From Patescibacteria group bacterium (GTDB lineage Bacteria; Patescibacteriota; Saccharimonadia; Saccharimonadales; 2-12-FULL-41-12): a DNA stretch of 64,000 bases. A model generated the notes under the pieces. It made no database searches and was not told where the DNA came from. It worked only from the letters and a program-made list of their open reading frames with translations. How positions within the stretch are numbered: the first letter of the stretch is position 1; each line of letters opens with the position of its first letter. Shown piece by piece: positions 3,460 to 64,000 of this stretch. A program made the translations under genes and the position numbers. The DNA is taken from NCBI GenBank assembly GCA_038064875.1, contig JBBTSC010000001.1, positions 251,004 through 315,003 on the forward strand, given 5' to 3'.

Positions 3460-6400
3460 CTATTTGTCCTCCGTATCTTTAGTGCTTGTTTCAAAATTCT
3501 CTTCTGGATCTGGCGTCGCGTCTTCATCATCACTGGCTGGTTGAGCAGAGCTCAGGCCATCTTCAAAGTCCATATCTTTAAATTCATCAGCAATAGACTC
3601 TTCTGTGATGTCTATATTATTGATCTCTGCACTCGGTACCTCGACAGTCGCAGGGGCGTTAGCCTCTTCAACAATAGTCTCAGCTAGTACTGTCTCTGCA
3701 TCAATAGTTTCTTGATTAGTAATCAAATCAACTTTTAGCCCAAGACCTTGTAGTTCTTTAACAAGAACGTTGAAGCTCTCTGGAACGCGTGGTCCGACAA
3801 TTTCAGTTTGTTTGATAATAGACTCGTAGGCTTTACTTCGTCCATACACATCATCTGACTTGATAGTTAACATTTCCTGAAGAGTATTTGCAGCGCCATA
3901 AGCCTCAAGCGCCCATACTTCCATCTCTCCAAATCGCTGACCACCATTTTGCGCCTTACCACCAAGAGGTTGTTGAGTAACCATAGTGTAAGGACCAGTG
4001 GAACGAGCGTGGATCTTGTCGTTGACCATGTGTGTTAGCTTGAGCATATACATGTTACCAACTACAGTTCGTTCGCTAAACGGTTCACCTGTTCGACCGT
4101 CAAATAGCTGTCGTTTACCATCTTCTGGAAGCTTGGCTTCTTTGAGCATTTCTTTAATCTTCTCTACTGGCATTCCACCAAATGAGGGGGTTGATACCTT
4201 GATACCAAGAGCTCTTGCAGCCATACCGAGGTGAGTCTCGAACAACTGGCCTAAGTTCATACGACTTGGCACACCCATCGGGTTGAGCACGATATCTACA
4301 GGAGTTCCATCTTCTAGGTACGGCATGTCTTCTATTGGAAGTACTTTGGCAATAACACCTTTGTTACCGTGACGTCCAGCTAGCTTATCACCAACTTGGA
4401 CTTTTCGCATTTGCGCCACAAAGACCTGGATTTGCATAATCACACCGGCTTTTAGTTCGTGACCTTTAGCTCGTGAGAATACTTTAACTCCTACAACTTT
4501 ACCGTGTTTTCCGTTACTCATTCGTTGTGATGTATCACGCACTTCTTTAGCTTTTTCGCCAAAGATAGCACGAAGTAGTCTTTCCTCACTTGAAAGCTCT
4601 TGCTCTCCCTTTGGAGTAATCTTACCAACTAATATGTCACCTGGATGAACTTCTGCACCAACACGAACAATTCCTTCTTCGTCTAAGTGTCTAAGAGCAT
4701 CTTCAGAAACATTCGGGATATCACCTGTAACAACTTCAGGTCCAAGCTTCGTCTCACGCACTTCTGTCATGTAATCAACAATATGTACGCTGGTCAGCGT
4801 GTCATCTTCAACAAGTTTACGAGAAATGACCATTGCATCTTCGAAGTTATAACCGTTCCAAGGCATAAATGCCACAACAAGATCTCTTCCAAGTGCAAGC
4901 TCACCGCCGTCAATTGACATTCCTTCAATCAACACGTCACCTTTTTTAACCTTTTCGCCAGTTGAGACAACAGCCTTTTGGTTAATAGATGTTCCTTCGT
5001 TACTTCGCATGAAGTGGCTGAGTTTGTAAGTAGATTTTTTACCTTTATATGACACGACAACTTGCTCGGCAGTCGAACTAACAATTTCACCATCAGCCTC
5101 AGCTACAACGAGCTGTCCACTGTTTTTAGCAATATCTGCCTCAACACCAGTACCTACAATAGGTGACTGCGGATTGATAAGCGGAACTGCTTGTTTTTGT
5201 TGGTTAGATCCCACAAGAGCACGGTCGACACGGTCACGCTCTACAAAAGGCACAAGCCCCGCAAGTGCTCCAACAATTTGATTATTGGCAGCGTCCATGT
5301 GCGTTACTTCATTTGAGTCGTTTTCACCAACTTGCAGACGGGTTCTAGCACTAACACGAGATTCCTTGAAATATCCGTCTTTGCCAACCACGTTACCAGC
5401 ACCAGCAATCACAGCTTTTTCTTCGTCATAAGCGTTCAAATAAATAATTTCATCTGTTACTTTGGCTTTTACTGGCCATGTCTTTTGGGTTGTTACTTTA
5501 GCAAGCTTTTCTGCATCGGCTTTAGTGATATCTTTACCTGCCTTAACGATTGTCTTGCCTTTAGCATCTTCTAGATTAACGCTCGCAATGTGGCCAACAG
5601 CATTTTTAGCTGTAACCGCGTTTGTAACCTTAAGATAAGGTGTTTCGATAAATCCATAGTCGTTAATACGTGCATAATTAGCAAGGTTAAGTACAAGTCC
5701 GATGTTTGCACCTTCCGGTGTTTCTACTGCACAAATACGTCCATAGTGAGTGGCATGTGCATCACGGACTTCAAATCCAGCACGTTCACGAGATAGTCCA
5801 CCAGGACCCATAGAACTCAGACGTCGCTTGTGAGCAAGTTCGCTCACTGGATTAATCTGATCCATAAACTGTGACAATTGTGAACTAGCAAAGAATTCAC
5901 GTACTGCAGCCACAACCGGACGTGCGTTGACTAGCTGGGCAGGCGTAACTGTTTCGATCTCGCTCATACTCATACGATCTTTTGTATTTCGCTCCATTCG
6001 AAGCAGTCCAATCCTAAATTGTCTTTGGATAAGCTCACCAACCAACTTAACGCGTCGGTTTGCAAGACTATCGATGTCATCAGCAGGATCACCTGTGATA
6101 TTAAGGCGGATAAGTTCTGCAATGATTGCTTTAAGGTCTTCAAGTCGCAAAATGCGGTTTTCTGAAGTATTTGGGATGTCAATATCAAGACGCTTATTGA
6201 TTTTGTATCGTCCCACGCGTGAGAAATCAAATCGCTTGTAGTTAAAGAACATGTTTTCGATCAAACTCTTTGCGTTATCAACAGTAGCCAAATCTCCTGG
6301 TCGAAGTCGTCGATAAACTTCAATAAGAGCTTCGCTCGTAGTACTAGAAGGGTCTTTGTCGATTGTTGCTTGCAAGAAGCTCTTTGCCCCTTGATCAACA

Positions 6401-7883: not shown

Positions 7884-8891
7884 TTAGATATCCTGCTCTT
7901 GTAATTTAGCTATGTTTTCCATGAGCCGAATGCGAACTCCTGTGTAGCAAGTTTCTAGCCGTCCTTCGAAATTTAGATCTGGAATCTGTGGTGACATAGG
8001 TGATTTACAATAACCAATGCTCTTACCTATAGTCTTTCTCATTACTGCTTTTGCAGGCAACGGATTGGGTGCTTCGTCAGAAGAAGCAAACTCGTATGAC
8101 TCTTGGAGTATATTGTCGATAGCCCTTGCCCTACCACCATCTTTAAAAGAAGGAAGTTGCTTTGCTTCCCACATTTGCTTTATAAGACGAGGGGCCCAAT
8201 GGCTAACAACTGATATTGCGCCATCCGCACCTGCACCAAAATGACGCAAGTTAAGAGCATCATCGCCAGAATATACTAGAAAATCTGGGTTTTCTCTCTT
8301 AATCTCAGCTGTCTGGCCAGGATCACCTGATGCAATTTTTATACCTACGATATTATCTACACCACTAGCAAGCTTTAGGATAGTTTCTGTGTCTACTGCT
8401 CTTCCAGTCCGGGCTGGGATATCGTACATTATTACTGGTTTGCCATCCGCAGCATCTGCAACTCTTTCATAGTAGTCAATTATTCCTGCCTGTGGCGGCC
8501 TATTGTAATAAGGTGAAACTACGAGTAATCCACTAAGTTCTTCTATCTTACTAGCTTGTTCTGTAAGCTGAACTGCTTCTTTTGTGGTATTTGCTCCGGT
8601 ACCAGCCAGTACTGGGATATTGACATTATCTACAATATCTCTCACAAGCCTTACCTGATCACCAGAAGATAATGCGGAGCTTTCTCCTGTAGTCCCAGCG
8701 ATAACCAAACCTTCAGACCCAGATTCTTGCAAGAAATTAGCAACTTTCAGGGATTGTAAACGATCCGAGACATCAGCTCTAAAATCAAAAGGTGTGATCA
8801 TAGCAGTTATCACGGTTCCAAAAGGAGACCTTTCTACTATTTCTTGGTCAGTTTTTAATGGCGCAAGTTCCATTCTTGAATCAAAGCTCAT
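7884..8891 (-). CDS. DapA-family class I aldolase (dihydrodipicolinate synthase / N-acetylneuraminate lyase family); substrate not assigned
   Basis: Motifs GTTGES, SPYYNRP, YDIPARTG and the Schiff-base Lys context VGIKIASGD. It carries about 40 extra C-terminal residues compared with typical DapA. Confidence 0.85.
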   Translation of the reverse strand: MSFDSRMELAPLKTDQEIVERSPFGTVITAMITPFDFRADVSDRLQSLKVANFLQESGSEGLVIAGTTGESSALSSGDQVRLVRDIVDNVNIPVLAGTGANTTKEAVQLTEQASKIEELSGLLVVSPYYNRPPQAGIIDYYERVADAADGKPVIMYDIPARTGRAVDTETILKLASGVDNIVGIKIASGDPGQTAEIKRENPDFLVYSGDDALNLRHFGAGADGAISVVSHWAPRLIKQMWEAKQLPSFKDGGRARAIDNILQESYEFASSDEAPNPLPAKAVMRKTIGKSIGYCKSPMSPQIPDLNFEGRLETCYTGVRIRLMENIAKLQEQDI

Positions 8892-10257: not shown

Positions 10258-11487
10258 TTAGCCTGCAAGCTCTACTATTTCGTCAAAAGTCTTGTATTCT
10301 TCGTTTTTTGTAGTCAGATCTCTAACCTTGTACGAATCCTCTGCTAGTTCTTTGTCACCAACAAAGACAATATTCGCTACATTCTTTTTGTATGCTGATT
10401 TTACCTGTTTGTCTTCTTTTTTGCCCGACAGGTCTACTGCTACATTTAGACCCTTAGCTCTCAATTTCTGAGCCAGATCCTGAACTTTATCCGCAATATC
10501 GCCAACAACTATCAGATAAAGATCTGTTTCTGTCTTTAGATCCTGTATAAGGCCGTTCGTTTCCAGAAAGTTCTGGAAAGTTACATCGCCCATACCAAAA
10601 CCTACTGTAGGCACGGGTTCTACGCCGAATTCACCTACAAGCCCGTCGTAGCGTCCACCACCAAACATCGATCTGTTATTCTCAGGATTTTTATCAAATA
10701 CTTCGAAAACTATGTCTGTATAGTAGTCAAATCCTCTTGCGACAGTCGGGACGAATTTGATGTTTTGTACACCAGCCTTTTTAGCTTTCTCGATCAGCGC
10801 ATCACCCTCAGCTGTTCCTCCGTCATTAGTCAAGAATCCAAATAGTTTTTCTGGCTGATCAACTTGATCTTTAAGCTTAGTCTGAAAATCTTCTTTAGCT
10901 AATTTGTCAATATTGTCGATCAGACGAGTGACCTCAGCTACAGAAGTCTTCACCCCAGATTCATTTATTCTTTTATTAAGAAGTTCTCTGGAATTAACAC
11001 GAATCTCGTACATATCTTTAGTTGCGCCAAAAGATTCCATTAGCTTATTTATGATCAGCATCATTTCAAACTCTGCACCTATGCCTTCAATACCGAAGAT
11101 ATCTGCGTTAAGTTGCCAGAATTCGCGCAGGCGTCCACGCTGTTGTCTCTCGTATCTAAAACAGTTCGGTATGCTGTAGAGACGGAGCGGGTAGCCAAGC
11201 TCCTGACGCCTTTTGGCTACCATCCGACTAACCGTTGGTGTCATTTCTGGACGCATGACGACACGCCTACCACCTCTATCAGTGAAGTTGAATGATTGGT
11301 CGTTGACGATCTCCTCAGAAGTTTTGGCAGTGTAGAGATCAAGTGGCTCTAAAATTGGACCATCATATTCCTCGTAGCCAAAGCTCTCCATAACTTCTCG
11401 CCACTTACCGAACATCCACTTCCTCAGACGCATGTCCTCAGGGTAAAAATCTCGCGTACCTTTGTAGTTCTGTGTTGATAAACTCAT
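10258..11487 (-). CDS. hisS: Histidine--tRNA ligase
   Basis: Class II HisRS motifs: KGTRDFYPED, RPEMTPTVSRM, FRYERQQRGRLREFWQLNADIFG, GGGRYDGL. Its start overlaps the upstream gene by 4 bp. Confidence 0.95.
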   Translation of the reverse strand: MSLSTQNYKGTRDFYPEDMRLRKWMFGKWREVMESFGYEEYDGPILEPLDLYTAKTSEEIVNDQSFNFTDRGGRRVVMRPEMTPTVSRMVAKRRQELGYPLRLYSIPNCFRYERQQRGRLREFWQLNADIFGIEGIGAEFEMMLIINKLMESFGATKDMYEIRVNSRELLNKRINESGVKTSVAEVTRLIDNIDKLAKEDFQTKLKDQVDQPEKLFGFLTNDGGTAEGDALIEKAKKAGVQNIKFVPTVARGFDYYTDIVFEVFDKNPENNRSMFGGGRYDGLVGEFGVEPVPTVGFGMGDVTFQNFLETNGLIQDLKTETDLYLIVVGDIADKVQDLAQKLRAKGLNVAVDLSGKKEDKQVKSAYKKNVANIVFVGDKELAEDSYKVRDLTTKNEEYKTFDEIVELAG

Positions 11488-12215
11488 ATTCGCTCCTTAT
11501 TATACATTGATTTTTTTGTTAATAGTCCACCGAAATTATATGGCGTGTATTTATCCGCAATAAATATTGGATATGCTGGGCTTTTAACCCCCAATTCATC
11601 AGCAATCTCTCTGCTAATGGGCTGGAACGCTCTTAAGCCCTTTTCTTTAAGATTGAGTCTTTTACTGTCACCTAAAGATATGCGATAGACAAATTCGTAC
11701 AGACTTATTTGGTTTTCGTCTGCGCTACTAATTTTTTTTGCCTGTGCCAACTCAGTAATTTTATCAACCCACAAATCAACATTCATCATCGCGCTATCCA
11801 GGCTTACCTCCACAGAAATACAGTTTGGCGCATATTTATTTAAGCAATCATAATCAGCTACTATAACCCTATTCAGCCCAAAGAAAGCCGATACATTCTT
11901 TAAATTTTGGTTAGAGGTATCCCCTATAAAAGTGCAGTCATTTTCTGGGCAATGAGTGTTATGAAAATCAATAACAATATCATACTCACTGCAAAGTTTT
12001 ATTATTTGATTAGCTCTATTAAGCTCATAGTCTTTTGATCTTGCATCGCCCGGAAAACTTCTATTGAGATCCTTCCTGATGAACCGCCTTTTTGCTTCTA
12101 CGGCACGCTCATTCGCAATTATACTATCAACTAAACTATTTTTTTCGAGAGCCTTGACTATATCAATACCAAGAGGTTCATTGCCATGCATGCCACCAAT
12201 TACTAGAATTTTCAC
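11484..12215 (-). CDS. Succinylglutamate desuccinylase/aspartoacylase (AstE/AspA) family zinc hydrolase
   Basis: N-terminal VIGGMHGNEPLG, DLNRSFPG and DFHNTHCP resemble the aspartoacylase-family zinc and substrate motifs. It has 4-bp overlaps with both neighbours. Confidence 0.72.
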   Translation of the reverse strand: MKILVIGGMHGNEPLGIDIVKALEKNSLVDSIIANERAVEAKRRFIRKDLNRSFPGDARSKDYELNRANQIIKLCSEYDIVIDFHNTHCPENDCTFIGDTSNQNLKNVSAFFGLNRVIVADYDCLNKYAPNCISVEVSLDSAMMNVDLWVDKITELAQAKKISSADENQISLYEFVYRISLGDSKRLNLKEKGLRAFQPISREIADELGVKSPAYPIFIADKYTPYNFGGLLTKKSMYNKERI

Positions 12216-12877
12216 GACTGTCTCCCCTCTGTAATGATAACAAAATCTCGTCTATCTGGAAGGTCTTTTTCTCTATTAAATATACTAGCATTTGACCCAA
12301 ATCGTTCTGCAACAGACAGCATCTGTGGATTAATTGTCCGATAAGCAAGTCGCGGTACATCAAGCTCCTTCATAAAAGCTCTAGTCATCGCCACAAAGTT
12401 ATCTAGATTCCTGTCTGGCCTTATACGTTTATTTGCAAAGACCTCATCAAGCCATACAACTTCTTTATCAAACGGTAACTGATTTATCAACCAGGCCCTT
12501 ACGGCTGAACTATCACCATACTTTTCATCGATAATTTGTTCAGCGTTTGCACGCCAAGCTAGTCCTGCTAGGGCAACCTTTTCCTCACAAAATTCCAGGT
12601 ACCACCTAGAGGGTCGTGACTCGCCAATCTCGTTAAATCTATCTATTAGATCCGACCCTAAGTAGGCTGGCTCTTTGATGCACAGTTGACATTTTGCACA
12701 GAAATCACCGACCTCTTGATCAGAGAATCCTCCTTCGCATTTTTCCTCATCATCTACACATTTTGAAACTTCATACCAAGGAGGGCCTGCAAAGGCTGTT
12801 TGGTATGCGTTCGCTATTTCATCGTAGTATTTTCTAATTTCTCCTGGGTTTTCCCCAGGATTTATTATCTTATTCAT
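12212..12877 (-). CDS. Hypothetical protein with a Cys-rich, zinc-ribbon-like insert
   Basis: 221-aa ORF with AAAGGAC upstream of the ATG and a cysteine cluster CVDDEEKCEGGFSDQEVGDFCAKCQLC. I recognise no confident family. Its stop overlaps the AstE-like start. Confidence 0.6.
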   Translation of the reverse strand: MNKIINPGENPGEIRKYYDEIANAYQTAFAGPPWYEVSKCVDDEEKCEGGFSDQEVGDFCAKCQLCIKEPAYLGSDLIDRFNEIGESRPSRWYLEFCEEKVALAGLAWRANAEQIIDEKYGDSSAVRAWLINQLPFDKEVVWLDEVFANKRIRPDRNLDNFVAMTRAFMKELDVPRLAYRTINPQMLSVAERFGSNASIFNREKDLPDRRDFVIITEGRQS

Positions 12878-12915: not shown

Positions 12916-12937
12916 ACGCCGGAACAAAATCCGGCGT
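12916..12937 (-). terminator. Rho-independent terminator (8-bp GC-rich stem plus T-run)
   Basis: Minus strand reads ACGCCGGA-TTTTGT-TCCGGCGT followed by TTTTTAATTT. It lies between the 92-aa ORF and the 221-aa gene. Confidence 0.7.
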
Positions 12938-13040: not shown

Positions 13041-13319
13041 TTATTTATTAACGCGAAGTGCGTCAACACCAGCTCTATGTATGGCTAGGGAGTCAGGAGA
13101 TTCTGGAGCAATGCTTTGCGCTGATGCGCAACTTCCAATACTTCTTAGTCTTTCATTTAATTTACCAAATAACTTTGAAGCGCCTGAAAATATTGACTCG
13201 TGCATTTCTGCTGCTACCATTAGTGGATCTGATGGTATTAGTTTTACGGGAGGTAAATCATCTTGATTATTACCTGTTAGTTCAGGACTTGTTTCAATGG
13301 ATCTTGTGTTTGCGCTCAT
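13041..13319 (-). CDS. Hypothetical small protein (92 aa)
   Basis: An AAGGAAG Shine-Dalgarno sequence lies 4 nt upstream of ATG 13319. The ORF sits 18 nt downstream of the KARI stop and is followed by the terminator at 12916-12937. No recognisable motif. Confidence 0.5.
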   Translation of the reverse strand: MSANTRSIETSPELTGNNQDDLPPVKLIPSDPLMVAAEMHESIFSGASKLFGKLNERLRSIGSCASAQSIAPESPDSLAIHRAGVDALRVNK

Positions 13320-13337
13320 GATACTTCCTTTTTTAAA

Positions 13338-14828
13338 TTATAGTGCTATCGCTACCGGGGGTCGCATCTTTGCTAGTTCACTGAGCACACCATGAACAGG
13401 ATGATTCTCAAAATCATCAAATGCTCCATTATCAGCTCCATCTATATTCGGTAGAACAGCCTGAGCCATAACTGCCTCATATTGTGGTGCCCACTTGCGA
13501 GAACCTCTTCTAGCGGTTACAGAACAATTATCAACCATATGGGCTACACCAGCTTTCTTCATATATGGATTGAGCGAGTCAACAGCTTCGATGATTGATT
13601 CGTTGACAATCTCTGACATGTGATGGCCCTTGCTCATTAACACATCGACTTGTGCCATCATGGCTGCAGCATAAACCCCTGCTACTTTTGTATCAATTTC
13701 AACTTCAGCTACGGTTAATGGATTCATCCTAACTTCGGCTCCTACTTGCCACATCGGGGTGCCTCCAATTTCAAACATCGGGTAATCACGCTCATTGTCT
13801 GCTATAACTTCCGCGATTTCTCGACCACTTGATACATCTGCATATATTTTTTCCGTAAGTTCACGTAACGGACCATAGGCAGACCTGTATGCTTGTCTGA
13901 AAACTGGTTTTTCATCTTCTGGTATGGAATCGTAGAGACCCTTTAAGCCCTTCTCGGAAATCGTTGAAGAGATCGGGCCGACTAATGATTCAACAACGTG
14001 CAAATAGGCCGGTACATCTCTCATAGCTCCAGAGACAGTTAAGTCTTTATACATAGCCTCAACTATTCCGTGGACACCGCCGAGCAAAACAGCTCTTTCG
14101 CCAAATATGTCAGATCTCCATTCGTTTTCTAGAGTTGTCTGGAAAGTGTATGGTGCACCTAACATTCGGGACCATCCAAGAGCTAGATCAGTCTCTCTCT
14201 GCCCACCTTGGCTAACAGCAAAACTGGTATTTATACCGCTATCTTGCTCATAAAGTTTCCTAACAGAAGGGCCCATACCTTTAGGGCACACTCCTATGAT
14301 ACCTACGTCCGGACGGGGAGCCTCTCCCATATTTTCTAGATGCCCTAGCCAGAACCCGTGAGACAGACCGATTACAGAGCCAGATTTTGCAAGACCCACA
14401 AATTCTTGCCCGTGTTTTGCCATCGCGGCATCAGATATCAACATCAGCGAAAGATCCGCATCATCAATCGCTCCTTCTACCGTATCAAGTGTGCCATTTT
14501 TGACATTAAAGCCTGCTTCCTCTGCGCCAGCACGTGATTTACTTCCATCACGCAGACCTACTACTACTTGAGTTTTATCACCAAGTCCAGCTGAATAAAG
14601 AGAGTCCCGAATATTTTGTGCCTGTGCTGGTCCTTGCGAACTCCAGCCTAGTACTGCAATTTTTGCGACTCCGCTTAGAGCTTGTGGCAAACCATCATGC
14701 AAACGGTCACCCTCTTCATTGTAGCCACGCATAACAGTCTCACTTGCACCACCAAGCTCTACCGTCAGTAGGGAGTTAGCAAATATTTCTGACTCAAAAT
14801 TGTTAGACTGGTTCGATTGTGCACTCAT
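13338..14828 (-). CDS. ilvC: Ketol-acid reductoisomerase, long class II, plant-like type
   Basis: Collinear resemblance to plant KARI as I recall it: GWSSQGPAQAQNIRDS, GLSHGFWLGHL, CPKGMGPSVRKLY, SDIFGERAVLLGGVHG, NESIIEAVDSLNPYM, MVDNCSVTARRGSRKWAP. ATG 14828 is preferred because the TTG at 14894 used by the ORF track coincides with a predicted -35 box. Confidence 0.9.
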   Translation of the reverse strand: MSAQSNQSNNFESEIFANSLLTVELGGASETVMRGYNEEGDRLHDGLPQALSGVAKIAVLGWSSQGPAQAQNIRDSLYSAGLGDKTQVVVGLRDGSKSRAGAEEAGFNVKNGTLDTVEGAIDDADLSLMLISDAAMAKHGQEFVGLAKSGSVIGLSHGFWLGHLENMGEAPRPDVGIIGVCPKGMGPSVRKLYEQDSGINTSFAVSQGGQRETDLALGWSRMLGAPYTFQTTLENEWRSDIFGERAVLLGGVHGIVEAMYKDLTVSGAMRDVPAYLHVVESLVGPISSTISEKGLKGLYDSIPEDEKPVFRQAYRSAYGPLRELTEKIYADVSSGREIAEVIADNERDYPMFEIGGTPMWQVGAEVRMNPLTVAEVEIDTKVAGVYAAAMMAQVDVLMSKGHHMSEIVNESIIEAVDSLNPYMKKAGVAHMVDNCSVTARRGSRKWAPQYEAVMAQAVLPNIDGADNGAFDDFENHPVHGVLSELAKMRPPVAIAL

Positions 14829-14865
14829 AGCTAGTAACTCCACATGTTGGTTAAGTATTTTCGGT

Positions 14866-14894
14866 ATTGTATTACCAATATTTTGGGATTGCAA
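14866..14894 (-). promoter_or_regulatory. Candidate promoter for ilvC (TTGCAA-N17-TACAAT)
   Basis: On the minus strand, TTGCAA is at 14894-14889 and TACAAT at 14871-14866, with 17 nt between. It sits directly downstream of the terminator at 14903-14925. Confidence 0.5.
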
Positions 14895-14902
14895 GCATAA
14901 GC

Positions 14903-14925
14903 AAAAAAACGACCATAGAGGTCGC
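14903..14925 (-). terminator. Rho-independent terminator
   Basis: Minus strand reads GCGACC-TCTAT-GGTCGT followed by a run of T (A run 14903-14909 on the plus strand). It lies 10 nt downstream of the CCA end of the tRNA-like fragment. Confidence 0.65.
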
Positions 14926-14935
14926 TAAATAATGT

Positions 14936-15055
14936 TGGTGCGGATGAAAGGACTTGGTCACGTCCCGCGACCCCAGAACTTCACTATTGGCAACGAGTTG
15001 CCATCGGAAGATTCTCTTGCAAAGTGCCGACTGGCACTTCTCACCTTCACGCCTT
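14936..15055 (-). pseudogene. Partial tRNA-Leu 3' copy interrupted at the T-loop by an 87-nt three-hairpin insert
   Basis: Minus-strand block AAGGCGTGAAGGT (15055-15043) and block AAGTCCTTTCATCCGCACCA (14955-14936) are identical to the intact tRNA-Leu. There they are separated by only 2 nt; here by 87 nt (14956-15042). No 5' acceptor strand (GCGGATG) is found. Confidence 0.6.
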
Positions 15056-15089
15056 GGGTTTGGCTCAAATCTGTCTCCCGAACAAACTT

Positions 15090-15110
15090 AAAACCCGACA
15101 CATGGTCGGG
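15090..15110 (-). terminator. Candidate terminator hairpin after tRNA-Leu
   Basis: Minus strand reads CCCGAC-CATGT-GTCGGG followed by TTTT. The hairpin starts 9 nt after the tRNA 3' end. Confidence 0.55.
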
Positions 15111-15119
15111 CTCTAAGTT

Positions 15120-15204
15120 TGGTGCGGATGAAAGGACTTGAACCTTCACGCCTTGCGGCACTAGTTCCTAAGACTAGCGTGTCTACCAATTCCACCACAT
15201 CCGC
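15120..15204 (-). tRNA. tRNA-Leu, anticodon UAG, CCA encoded
   Basis: Folded by hand: acceptor GCGGATG/CATCCGC; 3-bp D stem; anticodon stem CTAGT/ACTAG with loop CT-TAG-GA; long variable arm GCC-GCAA-GGC; T arm GAAGG-TTCAAGT-CCTTT; discriminator A then CCA. Confidence 0.95.
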
Positions 15205-15324: not shown

Positions 15325-15819
15325 TTACATAACGTGCAGACCCAACTCTCTAGTACGTTCTGTAGGGACAGCATAGGTGTCTAGGAGTTTGAGCTCGCAT
15401 TCTACCTTTCTAATCGTTTCTACCGCATAACCACGTCTTAACTGTTTTTGTTCGACGCTTCTTCTTTTATGTGCATCACTACTTGTTATGACTTTAAATC
15501 CATTTAAGTATATGTCTATCATCACAATTCCGTCACTGCCAAAAGGTGGATAGCTAATACGCGAAAGATCATCGAAAGCTTCCTCTACAACTTCTCTATC
15601 TTGCCTATAATACTCACCTGTGGCTTCTATGTCTTGCTGAACACCTTGGGCCAGATTAACAAATCTATTCCAATTTTCTACAACCTGTCCTTTTGTGCGA
15701 GCTGTAAATTCAGCAACAACATTAGAAGGTAGCGCTTCGTCAACTTGCTTTCCTAGTTCTCGCTCATGATTTCCTGCCATAGTTAGCAGTACTATATAAT
15801 CATGAATATCTACTGTCAA
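15325..15819 (-). CDS. Hypothetical protein (164 aa)
   Basis: The ORF start overlaps the rsmD stop by 4 bp, so it is probably co-translated in the recG-rsmD operon. No recognisable family. Confidence 0.55.
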   Translation of the reverse strand: MTVDIHDYIVLLTMAGNHERELGKQVDEALPSNVVAEFTARTKGQVVENWNRFVNLAQGVQQDIEATGEYYRQDREVVEEAFDDLSRISYPPFGSDGIVMIDIYLNGFKVITSSDAHKRRSVEQKQLRRGYAVETIRKVECELKLLDTYAVPTERTRELGLHVM

Positions 15820-47705: not shown

Positions 47706-48719
47706 GTGAGCGATCTATCTACAAAACTGCAAAATGTCGGACTAAATACAAAAATAATTGCGGCCTTGGATGAGAGCCCAGGAACTATTGCCAACAGACT
47801 TACTTCTGTCGGACTCACGCCAAGTGTGGAGTTAGCAGAGAAATATCGTGACGATTTAATTACGGCCGAAGGTATTGAAAATTATGTAGGTGGCATTATC
47901 CTGCATCCTTCAACTGCCAACCAAACAATAGATGGTCAAAACGCTGTTGCTCTGCTTAACTCAAAGGGCGTTGGCACCTTTGTAAAAGTAGACCAAGGAG
48001 TAGAAACAGACCCATCAAACGGATATAACGTGACTAAAGGATTTGATACTTTGGAGCAACAACTAAATGAGGCCAAAGCACTCGGGGCTGTAGGTGCAAA
48101 ATGGAGAAGTTTTATAGCTGTTGCCGACCCAGCTGACCCACTATATCAAGAAAATGTCAAAGCTAACGCTGATGGTTTAGCAAAGTATGCAAAAGCTAAC
48201 CAAGTTTTAGAGCTCATTCCGATTGTTGAGCCAGAAATATCTTTTGCAAAAATGAACCCTGCGCACGCCGGCGGAGTGCACACCATCGAAGAATCTGAGG
48301 CATCAGCACGGTATGTTCTAGCTGAGACTGTGAGTGCTATGCAAAATGAAGGCGTAGACCTATCAGCAATCATTCTAAAGATTGGATTTGTCTTGCCAGG
48401 CAAAGACACAGTCAGTGAAACAACTCCTCTTAACTATGAAGATATTGCAACAAGGACTCTTAGCGTGATCAGAGATGTACTGCCAAAAGATCTTAAAACC
48501 ATCGTTTTCCTCTCTGGAGGTCTCAATATACCAGACGCAACAGGATGTCTAAGGGCAATTAACGAAATTGCAAACGCTGACGACCCAATACTAAGCGCAA
48601 GTTACGGACGTGGCGTCCAAGCTGAGGCGCTTAAAAAGTTTGCTGTAGACGACCACGCAGGCACTCAAAGTGAATTCCTAAGCGCGTCTCAGGCCAATGC
48701 TTCAGTCCTCCGCAAATAA
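47706..48719 (+). CDS. Class I (Schiff-base) fructose-bisphosphate aldolase-like protein
   Basis: IIAALDESPGTIANRL, YRDDLITAEGIENYVGGIILHPST and FVKVDQG parallel the class I FBA motifs (AADESxGTxxKRL, YRxxL, IKVDKG). GTG start with a GAGGG Shine-Dalgarno sequence and TGGTATAAT upstream. Confidence 0.78.
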   Translation: MSDLSTKLQNVGLNTKIIAALDESPGTIANRLTSVGLTPSVELAEKYRDDLITAEGIENYVGGIILHPSTANQTIDGQNAVALLNSKGVGTFVKVDQGVETDPSNGYNVTKGFDTLEQQLNEAKALGAVGAKWRSFIAVADPADPLYQENVKANADGLAKYAKANQVLELIPIVEPEISFAKMNPAHAGGVHTIEESEASARYVLAETVSAMQNEGVDLSAIILKIGFVLPGKDTVSETTPLNYEDIATRTLSVIRDVLPKDLKTIVFLSGGLNIPDATGCLRAINEIANADDPILSASYGRGVQAEALKKFAVDDHAGTQSEFLSASQANASVLRK

Positions 48720-48727
48720 CTAGCTAT

Positions 48728-49633
48728 TTAAGACTTGGCCTTATTAGCTGAGCCGAACATATCTATCTTGTCCTCTACAACTTCTTGTACCGCGCCGATA
48801 ACTTCGTCCATTAGCTTTACAACAGCAAATTCTTTGGGATGCTCTTTTAGAACTTTTTCGAGTGTCTTTCTGTAGGCAATCCTCATATCGGAATTAATAT
48901 TTATCTTGGTTACGCCTATGATGGCAGCGTTTTTGAAATAATGTCCTGGGGTACCGCTACCGCCATGAAGGCTAATATTGCACCCAATAGATGCTCTTAC
49001 CCGGCTCAGGAGCTCAAGGTCTAATATTTTGGGTACTGGATATGAGCCATGCAAATTACCAATAGCAACCGCGAAGGTATCAATACCCGTAGCATCAACA
49101 AATGCTTTCGCTCCTTCGGGTGTAGAGAAAGTATTCTTTATCTCCTCGTAGTCAATTGTTTCTTCATGCACATTAGAACTACCGCCAAAATAATGTGGCT
49201 CACTCTCAACAATGGCGCCAGTTTTTTTAGCATACTCGACTACTTCTTTAGTCTTGGCAATTATCTCTTCTTCTGTGGCCTTTTTGTCCGCTTGAGAAAT
49301 ATCAATATGGATGAATTCATAACCTGCATCTATGGCTTCCTTGCAGGACTCTACGGATGGGCTGTGGTCTAAATTAATATACATTTCAAGCCCAAGCTCT
49401 TGACGATAATTATCAACCATATCTCTAACATTTTCTATGCCAATAGCATCGACTTCACCTTGGCTGACTTCAACTAGTACCGGAGAATTTTTTGCAACGG
49501 CTGCTCTTGCCACTGCTTTTAGGGTGTCTTGGTTATCCAGATTAAACGCTCCTACTGCAAAATGCTCCTTGCGCGCTCTGGCCATAAGGTCTCGTGCCTT
49601 GGCTGTATTCTTTTTTATTTCTTCTATCCCCAC
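48728..49633 (-). CDS. Class II (metal-dependent) fructose/tagatose-bisphosphate aldolase
   Basis: FAVGAFN, NLDHS and LHGGSG motifs of the class II FBA/TBP aldolase family. Confidence 0.88.
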   Translation of the reverse strand: MGIEEIKKNTAKARDLMARARKEHFAVGAFNLDNQDTLKAVARAAVAKNSPVLVEVSQGEVDAIGIENVRDMVDNYRQELGLEMYINLDHSPSVESCKEAIDAGYEFIHIDISQADKKATEEEIIAKTKEVVEYAKKTGAIVESEPHYFGGSSNVHEETIDYEEIKNTFSTPEGAKAFVDATGIDTFAVAIGNLHGSYPVPKILDLELLSRVRASIGCNISLHGGSGTPGHYFKNAAIIGVTKININSDMRIAYRKTLEKVLKEHPKEFAVVKLMDEVIGAVQEVVEDKIDMFGSANKAKS

Positions 49634-63802: not shown

Positions 63803-64000
63803 ATGAACATTGCGACCACAGATTTTTCATTTAAGGGTCAAACAAATCTCTACCACGGAAAAGTCAGAGATGTGTATTATATCGGCGACAAAGTTGCCAT
63901 GATAGCCACTGACAGAATCTCTGCGTTTGATTACAAATTCCCAGAGCTTATCCCGCACAAAGGCCAAGTCCTTAACCAAATCGCAACATATTTCTTAGAA
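63803..64000 (+). CDS. purC: SAICAR synthase, 5' part only
   Basis: [43 protein letters not shown] matches the PurC N-terminus (GKxRDxY, TDRxSAFD). The ORF runs off the window. Confidence 0.9.

Follow-up and report, generated by a model that had tools for sequence, protein, structure and literature searches.

A long-form ketol-acid reductoisomerase from a Candidate Phyla Radiation subclade in a predicted two-gene cassette beside a tRNA-Leu gene

We analysed a stretch of 64,000 nucleotides (nt; hereafter the window) from the 766-kb genome of a groundwater Saccharimonadales bacterium of the Candidate Phyla Radiation (CPR, Patescibacteria; assembly GCA_038064875.1, contig JBBTSC010000001.1, positions 251,004 to 315,003), and in it a gene for a ketol-acid reductoisomerase (KARI). 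We found that the gene encodes an apparently active enzyme of the long class II form that belongs to a CPR-specific subclade, and that together with a small downstream gene it makes up a predicted stand-alone cassette next to a tRNA-Leu gene. From the sequence evidence, we put at roughly 0.55 the probability that the enzyme is the canonical reductoisomerase of the valine/isoleucine route, with the other genes of the route elsewhere in the genome or its other steps supplied by partner organisms.

Results

The window encodes a complete long-form class II KARI

The open reading frame (ORF) as listed runs from 13338 to 14894 on the minus strand and would give 518 amino acids (aa) if counted from a TTG. 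Translation in fact begins at an ATG (position 14828) and ends in a TAA stop at 13338, because KARI homologs are 489–499 aa long (94–96% of the 518-aa ORF) and because the exact 496-aa product, encoded on a contig of 765,891 bp, is already deposited as MEK7626018.1 and annotated as KARI by NCBI. Position 14894, which a first-pass annotation made by a model from the sequence alone had taken as one end of the unit, is the first base of the –35 hexamer. Pfam places KARI_N at residues 78–247 and KARI_C in two stretches of the same polypeptide. Residues 28–517 of the ORF align with residues 12–509 of the spinach enzyme (1qmg; E = 2.1e-127), and the rice enzyme (3fr7) aligns end to end (E = 7.4e-127). 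In contrast, the E. coli class II enzyme (1yrl) aligns in the N-domain alone (E = 6.5e-13), and class I KARIs align over about 300 residues that cover the N-domain and the first KARI_C repeat. This bears out the collinearity with the long KARI of plants that the first-pass annotation had claimed.

Like the chloroplast KARIs of plants (spinach, PDB 1QMG/1YVE; rice, 3FR7/3FR8), the window KARI is collinear over about 490 residues with the same domain order, carries a duplicated KARI_C in one chain and has the same Mg2+/substrate and NADPH 2'-phosphate ligands. It differs from them in that it has no transit peptide and no plant linker (FYEKEGLPAF), a 5-residue loop (GKEVNGA region) is deleted, the dinucleotide-binding fingerprint reads GWSSQG where plants have GWGSQ(A/G), and 12 substitutions are fixed in its subclade, for example Leu523Arg. 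E. coli IlvC (PDB 1YRL; PRK05225) has the long form, the duplicated C-domain and a homologous N-terminal Rossmann domain; however, its alignment is limited to that N-domain and it represents a separate lineage of long KARI. Class I KARIs (PDB 4TSK, 1NP3; TIGR00465) have the same chemistry and the same catalytic motifs, but they are about 330–340 aa long with a single C-domain repeat and complete their knot by dimerising, whereas the window protein has both repeats in one chain.

Catalytic residues are retained and the gene is under selection

We judged residue invariance on two alignments, of 31 and 61 sequences, with calibrated spinach numbering. All Mg2+ and substrate ligands of the spinach enzyme (His226, Lys252, Glu311, Asp315, Glu319, Glu492, Glu496 and Ser518) are retained in the window KARI as H157, K183, E236, D240, E244, E410, E414 and S436, and these are invariant in both alignments. 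The ligands of the NADPH 2'-phosphate (spinach Arg162, Ser165 and Ser167) are retained as well; the loop that carries them reads GLRDGSKS in the window KARI, with R93 and S96 invariant. When we compared the gene with that of a relative, L001 (GCA_040959485.1), whose KARI is 89–90% identical, the ratio of nonsynonymous to synonymous substitution rates (dN/dS) was 0.063, as compared to 0.050 for HisRS and 0.046 for RecG. The window KARI thus looks active and under strong purifying selection.

These data bear on the idea that the gene is a decaying relic that has outlasted its pathway and no longer functions, as the lack of visible pathway partners nearby might suggest. The low dN/dS, the intact reading frame, the invariance of the catalytic residues across about 66 members of the clade and the conservation of the promoter and Shine-Dalgarno sequence all speak against it. 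Because the gene is under purifying selection, we rejected pseudogene status, which we regard as the least credible of the explanations considered.

A CPR-specific subclade within the long KARI family

The 66 sequences nearest to the window KARI are 50–60% identical to it, except for two close relatives at 89% and 99%, and the named members among them are Saccharimonadales, Saccharibacteria or Patescibacteria. This CPR subclade was monophyletic in 100 of 100 neighbour-joining bootstraps. It is marked by ARRG in place of ARLG after Cys517-Ser518, by EW(R)SD in place of EY/F(K/R)SD and by a 5-residue deletion after YxQ. At 12 positions it is fixed for a state that differs from all 135 other long KARIs (187E, 209G, 241R, 271S, 357V, 401K, 410R, 414E, 418D, 436V, 486W and 523R in spinach numbering); the arginine at 523 lies five residues beyond Ser518. 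In a scan of metagenome contigs with a C-terminal CPR-specific alignment, matches to the universal MVDNCS pattern dominated, and L091–L095 alone were of the CPR type.

To describe the wider family, we used a scan of GTDB species genomes with the CPR KARI alignment; the matches listed are almost all non-CPR long KARIs and inform phyletic breadth, not CPR contexts. Among these matches we found long KARIs at 48–52% identity to the window enzyme in, among others, Chloroflexota, Alpha- and Gammaproteobacteria, Desulfobulbaceae, Spirochaetes, Actinomycetota, Verrucomicrobia, Myxococcales and Latescibacterota. Judged by this breadth, "plant-type" is a misnomer for a family that is mainly bacterial. 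The non-CPR bacterial enzymes belong to the same family as the window KARI and keep ARLG, EY(K/R)SD and a 7-residue loop, whereas the window KARI falls in the separate, fully supported clade. When we clustered the neighbours of the matches listed, the long KARI of Chloroflexi lay inside an ilvB(599 aa)-ilvN(190 aa)-KARI-leuA(589 aa) operon at 7–9 loci, and it is therefore the canonical ilvC there; the window gene, in contrast, is stand-alone. Across the matches as a whole, ilvBN adjoins the long KARI in only about 9 of 80 loci and elsewhere the gene is mostly unlinked from ilv genes. Because long KARIs are mostly unlinked from ilv outside CPR too, isolation alone is weak evidence of an unusual role.

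The first-pass annotation had pointed to the GWSSQG loop, with serine at the second glycine of GxGxxG, as a departure from the plant GWGSQG. The motif is indeed present; however, it is not an oddity, as serine is the majority state among the bacterial members examined. Among the sequences examined, GWSSQG is found in Alpha- and Gammaproteobacteria, most Chloroflexi and most CPR members, and GWGSQG in plants, Spirochaetes, Desulfobulbaceae and Actinomycetota. Of the picture of an isolated plant-type enzyme, then, the long form collinear with plants stands, but the family is widespread in bacteria and has a canonical place in Chloroflexi operons.

Two contigs labelled Candidatus Saccharibacteria (L013 and L083) carry a long KARI of non-CPR type that groups with other phyla in the tree. 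The L013 enzyme has ARLG and the 7-residue loop; that of L083 has the loop and EYRSD, and the ARxG motif was not found in it. This pattern suggests mis-binning or independent acquisition.

KARI and a small downstream gene in one predicted transcription unit

The features of the KARI locus are collected in Table 1.

Table 1. Features of the KARI cassette and its tRNA-Leu flank (window coordinates).
Feature	Position	Strand	Remarks
Bidirectional intrinsic terminator	12916..12937	.	closes the cassette and parts it from the orf221-AstE-like-HisRS operon; kept in L001
92-aa small protein (orf92)	13041..13319	-	lineage-restricted; disordered N-terminus, two predicted helices, conserved C-terminal motif SCASAQSIAPESPDSLA
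Shine-Dalgarno AAGGAAG of orf92	13324..13330	-	in the 18-nt spacer past the KARI stop codon; read from sequence
KARI ORF	13338..14828	-	496 aa; class II enzyme of the long ("plant-type") form, in the CPR-specific subclade
KARI Shine-Dalgarno GGAG	14838..14841	-	9 nt ahead of the ATG; read from sequence; kept in L001
Sigma-70-like promoter TTGCAA-N17-TACAAT	14866..14894	-	9/12 positions match
Intrinsic terminator-like hairpin and T-run (tRNA-Leu terminator)	14908..14926	-	kept in L001, changes preserve the stem
184-bp insertion after tRNA-Leu	14936..15119	-	last 20 nt repeat the tRNA 3' end exactly; outside the KARI unit
tRNA-Leu (anticodon TAG)	15120..15204	-	ARAGORN; Rfam RF00005, 59.8 bits; just upstream of the cassette

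Both promoter hexamers are identical in L001, with three changes in the spacer, and L001 also keeps the GGAG Shine-Dalgarno sequence and the two terminators; L176, a further Saccharimonadales genome described below, has an equivalent hairpin ahead of its orf216. We found 13 promoter-like matches in the region as compared to 8.2 expected, and the promoter match alone is therefore weak evidence. The conservation of these signals in L001 supports the earlier statement that the gene has its own promoter right after one terminator and is closed off by another. By its predicted signals, KARI together with the 92-aa ORF is a transcriptionally self-contained two-gene unit, an operon that would run from the promoter and Shine-Dalgarno sequence through KARI and the short spacer with its own ribosome site to the 92-aa protein and the bidirectional terminator.

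The 92-aa ORF has no match in Pfam, NCBIfam or PHROGs, and among 5.8 billion proteins we found only two homolog clusters (97% and 74% identity); an exhaustive profile search added one further cluster (P0151, E = 1.5e-30). All three clusters sit downstream of this KARI, and P0151 lies between a KARI whose C-terminus is 95% identical to that of the window and a homolog of orf221, the gene that follows the cassette. Because its dN/dS against L001 is 0.23, the ORF is probably a real gene; it evolves fast and is limited to a narrow lineage. An AlphaFold2 model of low confidence (pLDDT 63) has helices at residues 32–67 and 75–90. None of the small ORFs downstream of KARI in other CPR genomes is related to it. 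The first-pass description of an unknown ORF with a good Shine-Dalgarno sequence, followed by a terminator, was accurate; however, its co-occurrence with KARI is confined to one narrow lineage, and with such a distribution it does not qualify as a conserved partner of KARI.

The cassette is present or absent at the tRNA-Leu 3' flank

In two syntenic Saccharimonadales genomes, L175 (GCA_964521095.1) and L176 (GCA_947085495.1), KARI and orf92 are missing at the same tRNA-Leu flank, and the gene order is RecG-RsmD-tRNA-Leu-(orf216-AstE-like)-HisRS-Tig-...-ClpP-RpoB-RpoC. The tRNA-Leu sequence is identical in L001, L175 and L176. RpoB of L175 and L176 is 81% identical to that of the window and RecG and Tig are about 48–50% identical, while RpoB is 90% identical between L175 and L176. 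Because these two genomes are close to each other they count as one outgroup, and a gain in the window lineage is favoured, not proven. The cassette is thus a presence/absence polymorphism at the tRNA-Leu 3' flank, and to this extent the first-pass annotation is supported.

The first-pass annotation had also placed the gene next to a tRNA-Leu att-like scar. The tRNA does adjoin the cassette and the 20-nt repeat is exact (copy at 14936..14955, original at 15120–15139); however, the repeat brackets a 184-bp insert, not KARI. The insert also contains a 14-nt copy of the variable-arm/T-stem segment at 15043..15056. For these repeats we found two exact matches as compared to 0 expected. The insert resembles a tRNA 3' half interrupted in the T-loop and folds stably (RNA fold z-score –3.9), and its 157-nt core has no match among phage records and no Rfam family. 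The insert is absent from L001 and L176, and L175 has a related 283-bp insert (3679–3966) in this position; the two inserts have their 3' boundary (GTGACCAAGTCCTTTCATCCGCACCA) and a module, AGGCGTGAAGGTGAGAA(C/G)TGCCAGT, in common. In this Saccharimonadales lineage, insertions appear to recur at the tRNA-Leu 3' end. The cassette is not bounded by the att-like repeat, given that its two copies enclose only 184 bp of non-coding DNA, with KARI outside, and that L001 carries KARI but lacks the repeat.

We then considered the composition and origin of the cassette. The GC content of KARI is 0.458 (z = 1.6) and that of its third codon positions (GC3) is 0.344 (z = –0.2); its synonymous-usage divergence ranks 8th of 25 among window genes of at least 300 aa, and its tetranucleotide distance is at the 86th percentile. 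GC3 and synonymous codon usage are thus indistinguishable from the flanks, and composition and codon usage therefore indicate no recent foreign import. Together with the placement in a widespread bacterial family, this covers most of what the first-pass annotation had named as evidence against its own reading. Between the window and another CPR locus, L089, KARI is 58.6% identical and PurL 52%, so the divergence of KARI is in line with that of the organisms. The cassette is common to at least three diverged genomes, and in eight CPR lineages we found KARI in eight unrelated neighbourhoods. To judge from this distribution, the cassette behaves as a relocatable stand-alone unit within CPR. It was probably inserted or relocated as a unit at the tRNA-Leu 3' flank in the ancestor of the lineage, from the CPR gene pool, and long enough ago for its composition to equilibrate.

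A recent horizontal acquisition from outside CPR (a plant, an alga or an unrelated bacterium), with the gene as cargo of an integrative element at tRNA-Leu, would account for the adjoining tRNA, for the att-like direct repeat of its 3' end and for the missing cassette in L175 and L176. However, the nearest relatives of the enzyme are all CPR sequences (57–60% identity) within the 100%-supported clade, while plants and other phyla reach at most about 50% identity. In GC3, codon usage and tetranucleotide content the gene does not stand out from the window, and in Pfam scans of about 50 window ORFs we found no Phage_integrase or recombinase domain. The bracketing of non-coding DNA by the repeat, the presence of KARI in L001 without the insert, the spread of the cassette over diverged genomes and the agreement of KARI and PurL divergence add to these points. 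With CPR-only relatives, native composition and no integrase, we rejected recent foreign acquisition of KARI as very improbable, and this part of the horizontal-import claim in the first-pass annotation falls away.

Between RsmD and tRNA-Leu lies a 164-aa ORF (15325–15819, minus strand), with a 4-nt overlap at the RsmD stop codon. Its 180-aa counterpart in L001 is only 32% identical, although the flanking genes are 88–91% identical, and L175 and L176 have no such ORF, with RsmD directly beside the tRNA. The ORF has no Pfam, NCBIfam or PHROGs match, and its slot holds either a hypervariable or a replaced gene.

The enzyme probably serves the valine/isoleucine route

The KARI would catalyse the canonical NADPH- and Mg2+-dependent alkyl migration and reduction of 2-acetolactate and 2-aceto-2-hydroxybutyrate, and it probably serves the valine/isoleucine route, with the other steps encoded elsewhere in the genome or provided by partner organisms. 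Relatives offer hints of a threonine-to-isoleucine connection: in L002 an IlvA-like threonine ammonia-lyase gene lies 8 kb from KARI, and in L089 thrC lies two genes upstream of it. Threonine dehydratase KEGG orthologs are found in 4 of 11 Saccharimonadia metagenome-assembled genomes (MAGs), and Saccharimonadia are reported as enriched in amino-acid functions (PMC12577380, Table S6 for the orthologs).

Several observations weigh against this assignment. As the first-pass annotation had stated, no other branched-chain amino-acid gene lies within the 64 kb: among about 50 window ORFs, the Pfam scans detected none of ilvB/H/D/E, leu and pan. In the 10 kb that follow the window, further purine genes are present and ilv and leu genes are absent, ilvB/N, ilvD, ilvE and leu are lacking within about 10 kb of KARI in every CPR locus examined, and tblastn gave no match to acetohydroxyacid synthase or LeuA in the KARI-flanking CPR sequence, about 255 kb in total. 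The enzyme scores below the NCBIfam cut-offs for ilvC equivalogs (TIGR00465, 195.8 against 226.15; PRK05479, 128.5 against 336; PRK13403, 80.7 against 406; PRK05225, 65 against 713), models derived from class I KARIs and from the class II enzymes of enterobacteria. The 12 fixed differences of the subclade, including Leu523Arg, and its loop deletion could reflect an altered substrate preference or an altered assembly. The polarity of the indel at the tRNA (gain here as opposed to loss in L175 and L176) rests on a single outgroup lineage. Finally, Patescibacteria MAGs from Hainich groundwater are reported to be without most amino-acid pathways (PMC8672522).

Some of these observations fit a different role, which we consider possible and clearly less probable than the canonical one, in which the gene encodes an orphan, repurposed enzyme. 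The genome would hold no other branched-chain step, and KARI alone would act as an NADPH-dependent reductase or reductoisomerase on scavenged or host-derived alpha-keto or alpha-ketol acids, possibly acetolactate, 2-ketoisovalerate, ketopantoate or hydroxypyruvate; this activity would serve salvage, detoxification or redox balance. Reduction of several 2-keto acids is a known activity of KARIs. In the eight independent CPR contexts KARI is never adjacent to ilvB/ilvN, ilvD or leuA, the genome is small, and CPR bacteria are generally without amino-acid pathways (PMC8672522, PMC9166423). The fixed changes Leu523Arg, Tyr209Gly and Tyr486Trp and the loop deletion would also fit, and the neighbours of KARI in relatives are often 2-hydroxyacid or aldehyde oxidoreductases (2-Hacid_dh, HIBADH-like and Ahr-like in L002; Ldh_2 in L021). 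In contrast, all residues for the isomerisation are kept, which a simple reductase would not need, and a gene unlinked from ilv is common outside CPR too. The threonine dehydratase and thrC genes near KARI in two relatives also argue against repurposing, and no neighbour recurs across lineages, as neighbour clustering around KARI found no recurrent partner in CPR.

A broader version of the repurposed role, which we offer only tentatively and hold to be rather unlikely, is that the KARI of the whole CPR subclade no longer takes part in de novo branched-chain synthesis. It would instead process scavenged or host alpha-ketol and alpha-keto acids or balance NADPH, and the cassette would move among ultra-small episymbionts, landing at hot spots like the tRNA-Leu flank.

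Other genes of the window

The window ORFs covered by the Pfam scans include rpoB, ClpP, DapA, trigger factor, HisRS, RecG, RadA, ClpC, NusA, DnaE, GatAB, UvrB, genes of the non-oxidative pentose-phosphate pathway, GAPDH and purL/M/E. The closest named matches of RpoB are Candidatus Saccharimonadales, and one carrier contig comes from a Hainich groundwater sample. The minus strand at 10258–12877 carries an operon of orf221, an AstE/aspartoacylase-like gene (243 aa) and HisRS, whose starts and stops overlap by 4 nt. The product of orf221 (221 aa) is cysteine-rich and has no family match; it is 36% identical in L176, with its cysteines invariant. In L002, an AstE_AspA gene lies 5 kb from KARI. 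The DapA equivalog (7884–8891, minus strand; 213.8 bits, cut-off 206) occupies a slot between ClpP and trigger factor that holds other genes in L175 and L176 (unknown ORFs and a NUDIX gene). Two fructose-bisphosphate aldolase genes, of class I on the plus strand and of class II on the minus strand, are arranged tail to tail at 47706–49633 and adjoin a split transketolase, Rpe, RpiB and GAPDH. Just past window base 64000, L172 (1811–3936) has two DUF1246/DUF1297 genes in tandem, which we take to encode archaeal-type PurP-like ATP-grasp enzymes; their neighbours are purA, guaA, purB and purC.

Discussion

The KARI enzyme itself is ordinary and of a known family, and what is new is that it is a member of a CPR-specific branch. 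A literature search for KARI or ilvC in Saccharibacteria, Patescibacteria or CPR, or for the evolution of class II KARI, found nothing relevant. The findings on the cassette alone open no long-standing question. It is of modest value that the long "plant-type" KARI appears to be mainly bacterial and that GWSSQG is normal within the family, and the tRNA-Leu 3' flank as an apparent recurrent insertion site is a further point of this kind. The CPR-only subclade combines conserved catalytic machinery with a gene that is always unlinked from ilv, in organisms thought to be without amino-acid synthesis. Such a combination offers a concrete, testable case in episymbiotic bacteria: either the pathway is distributed and cross-fed, or the enzyme has been repurposed.

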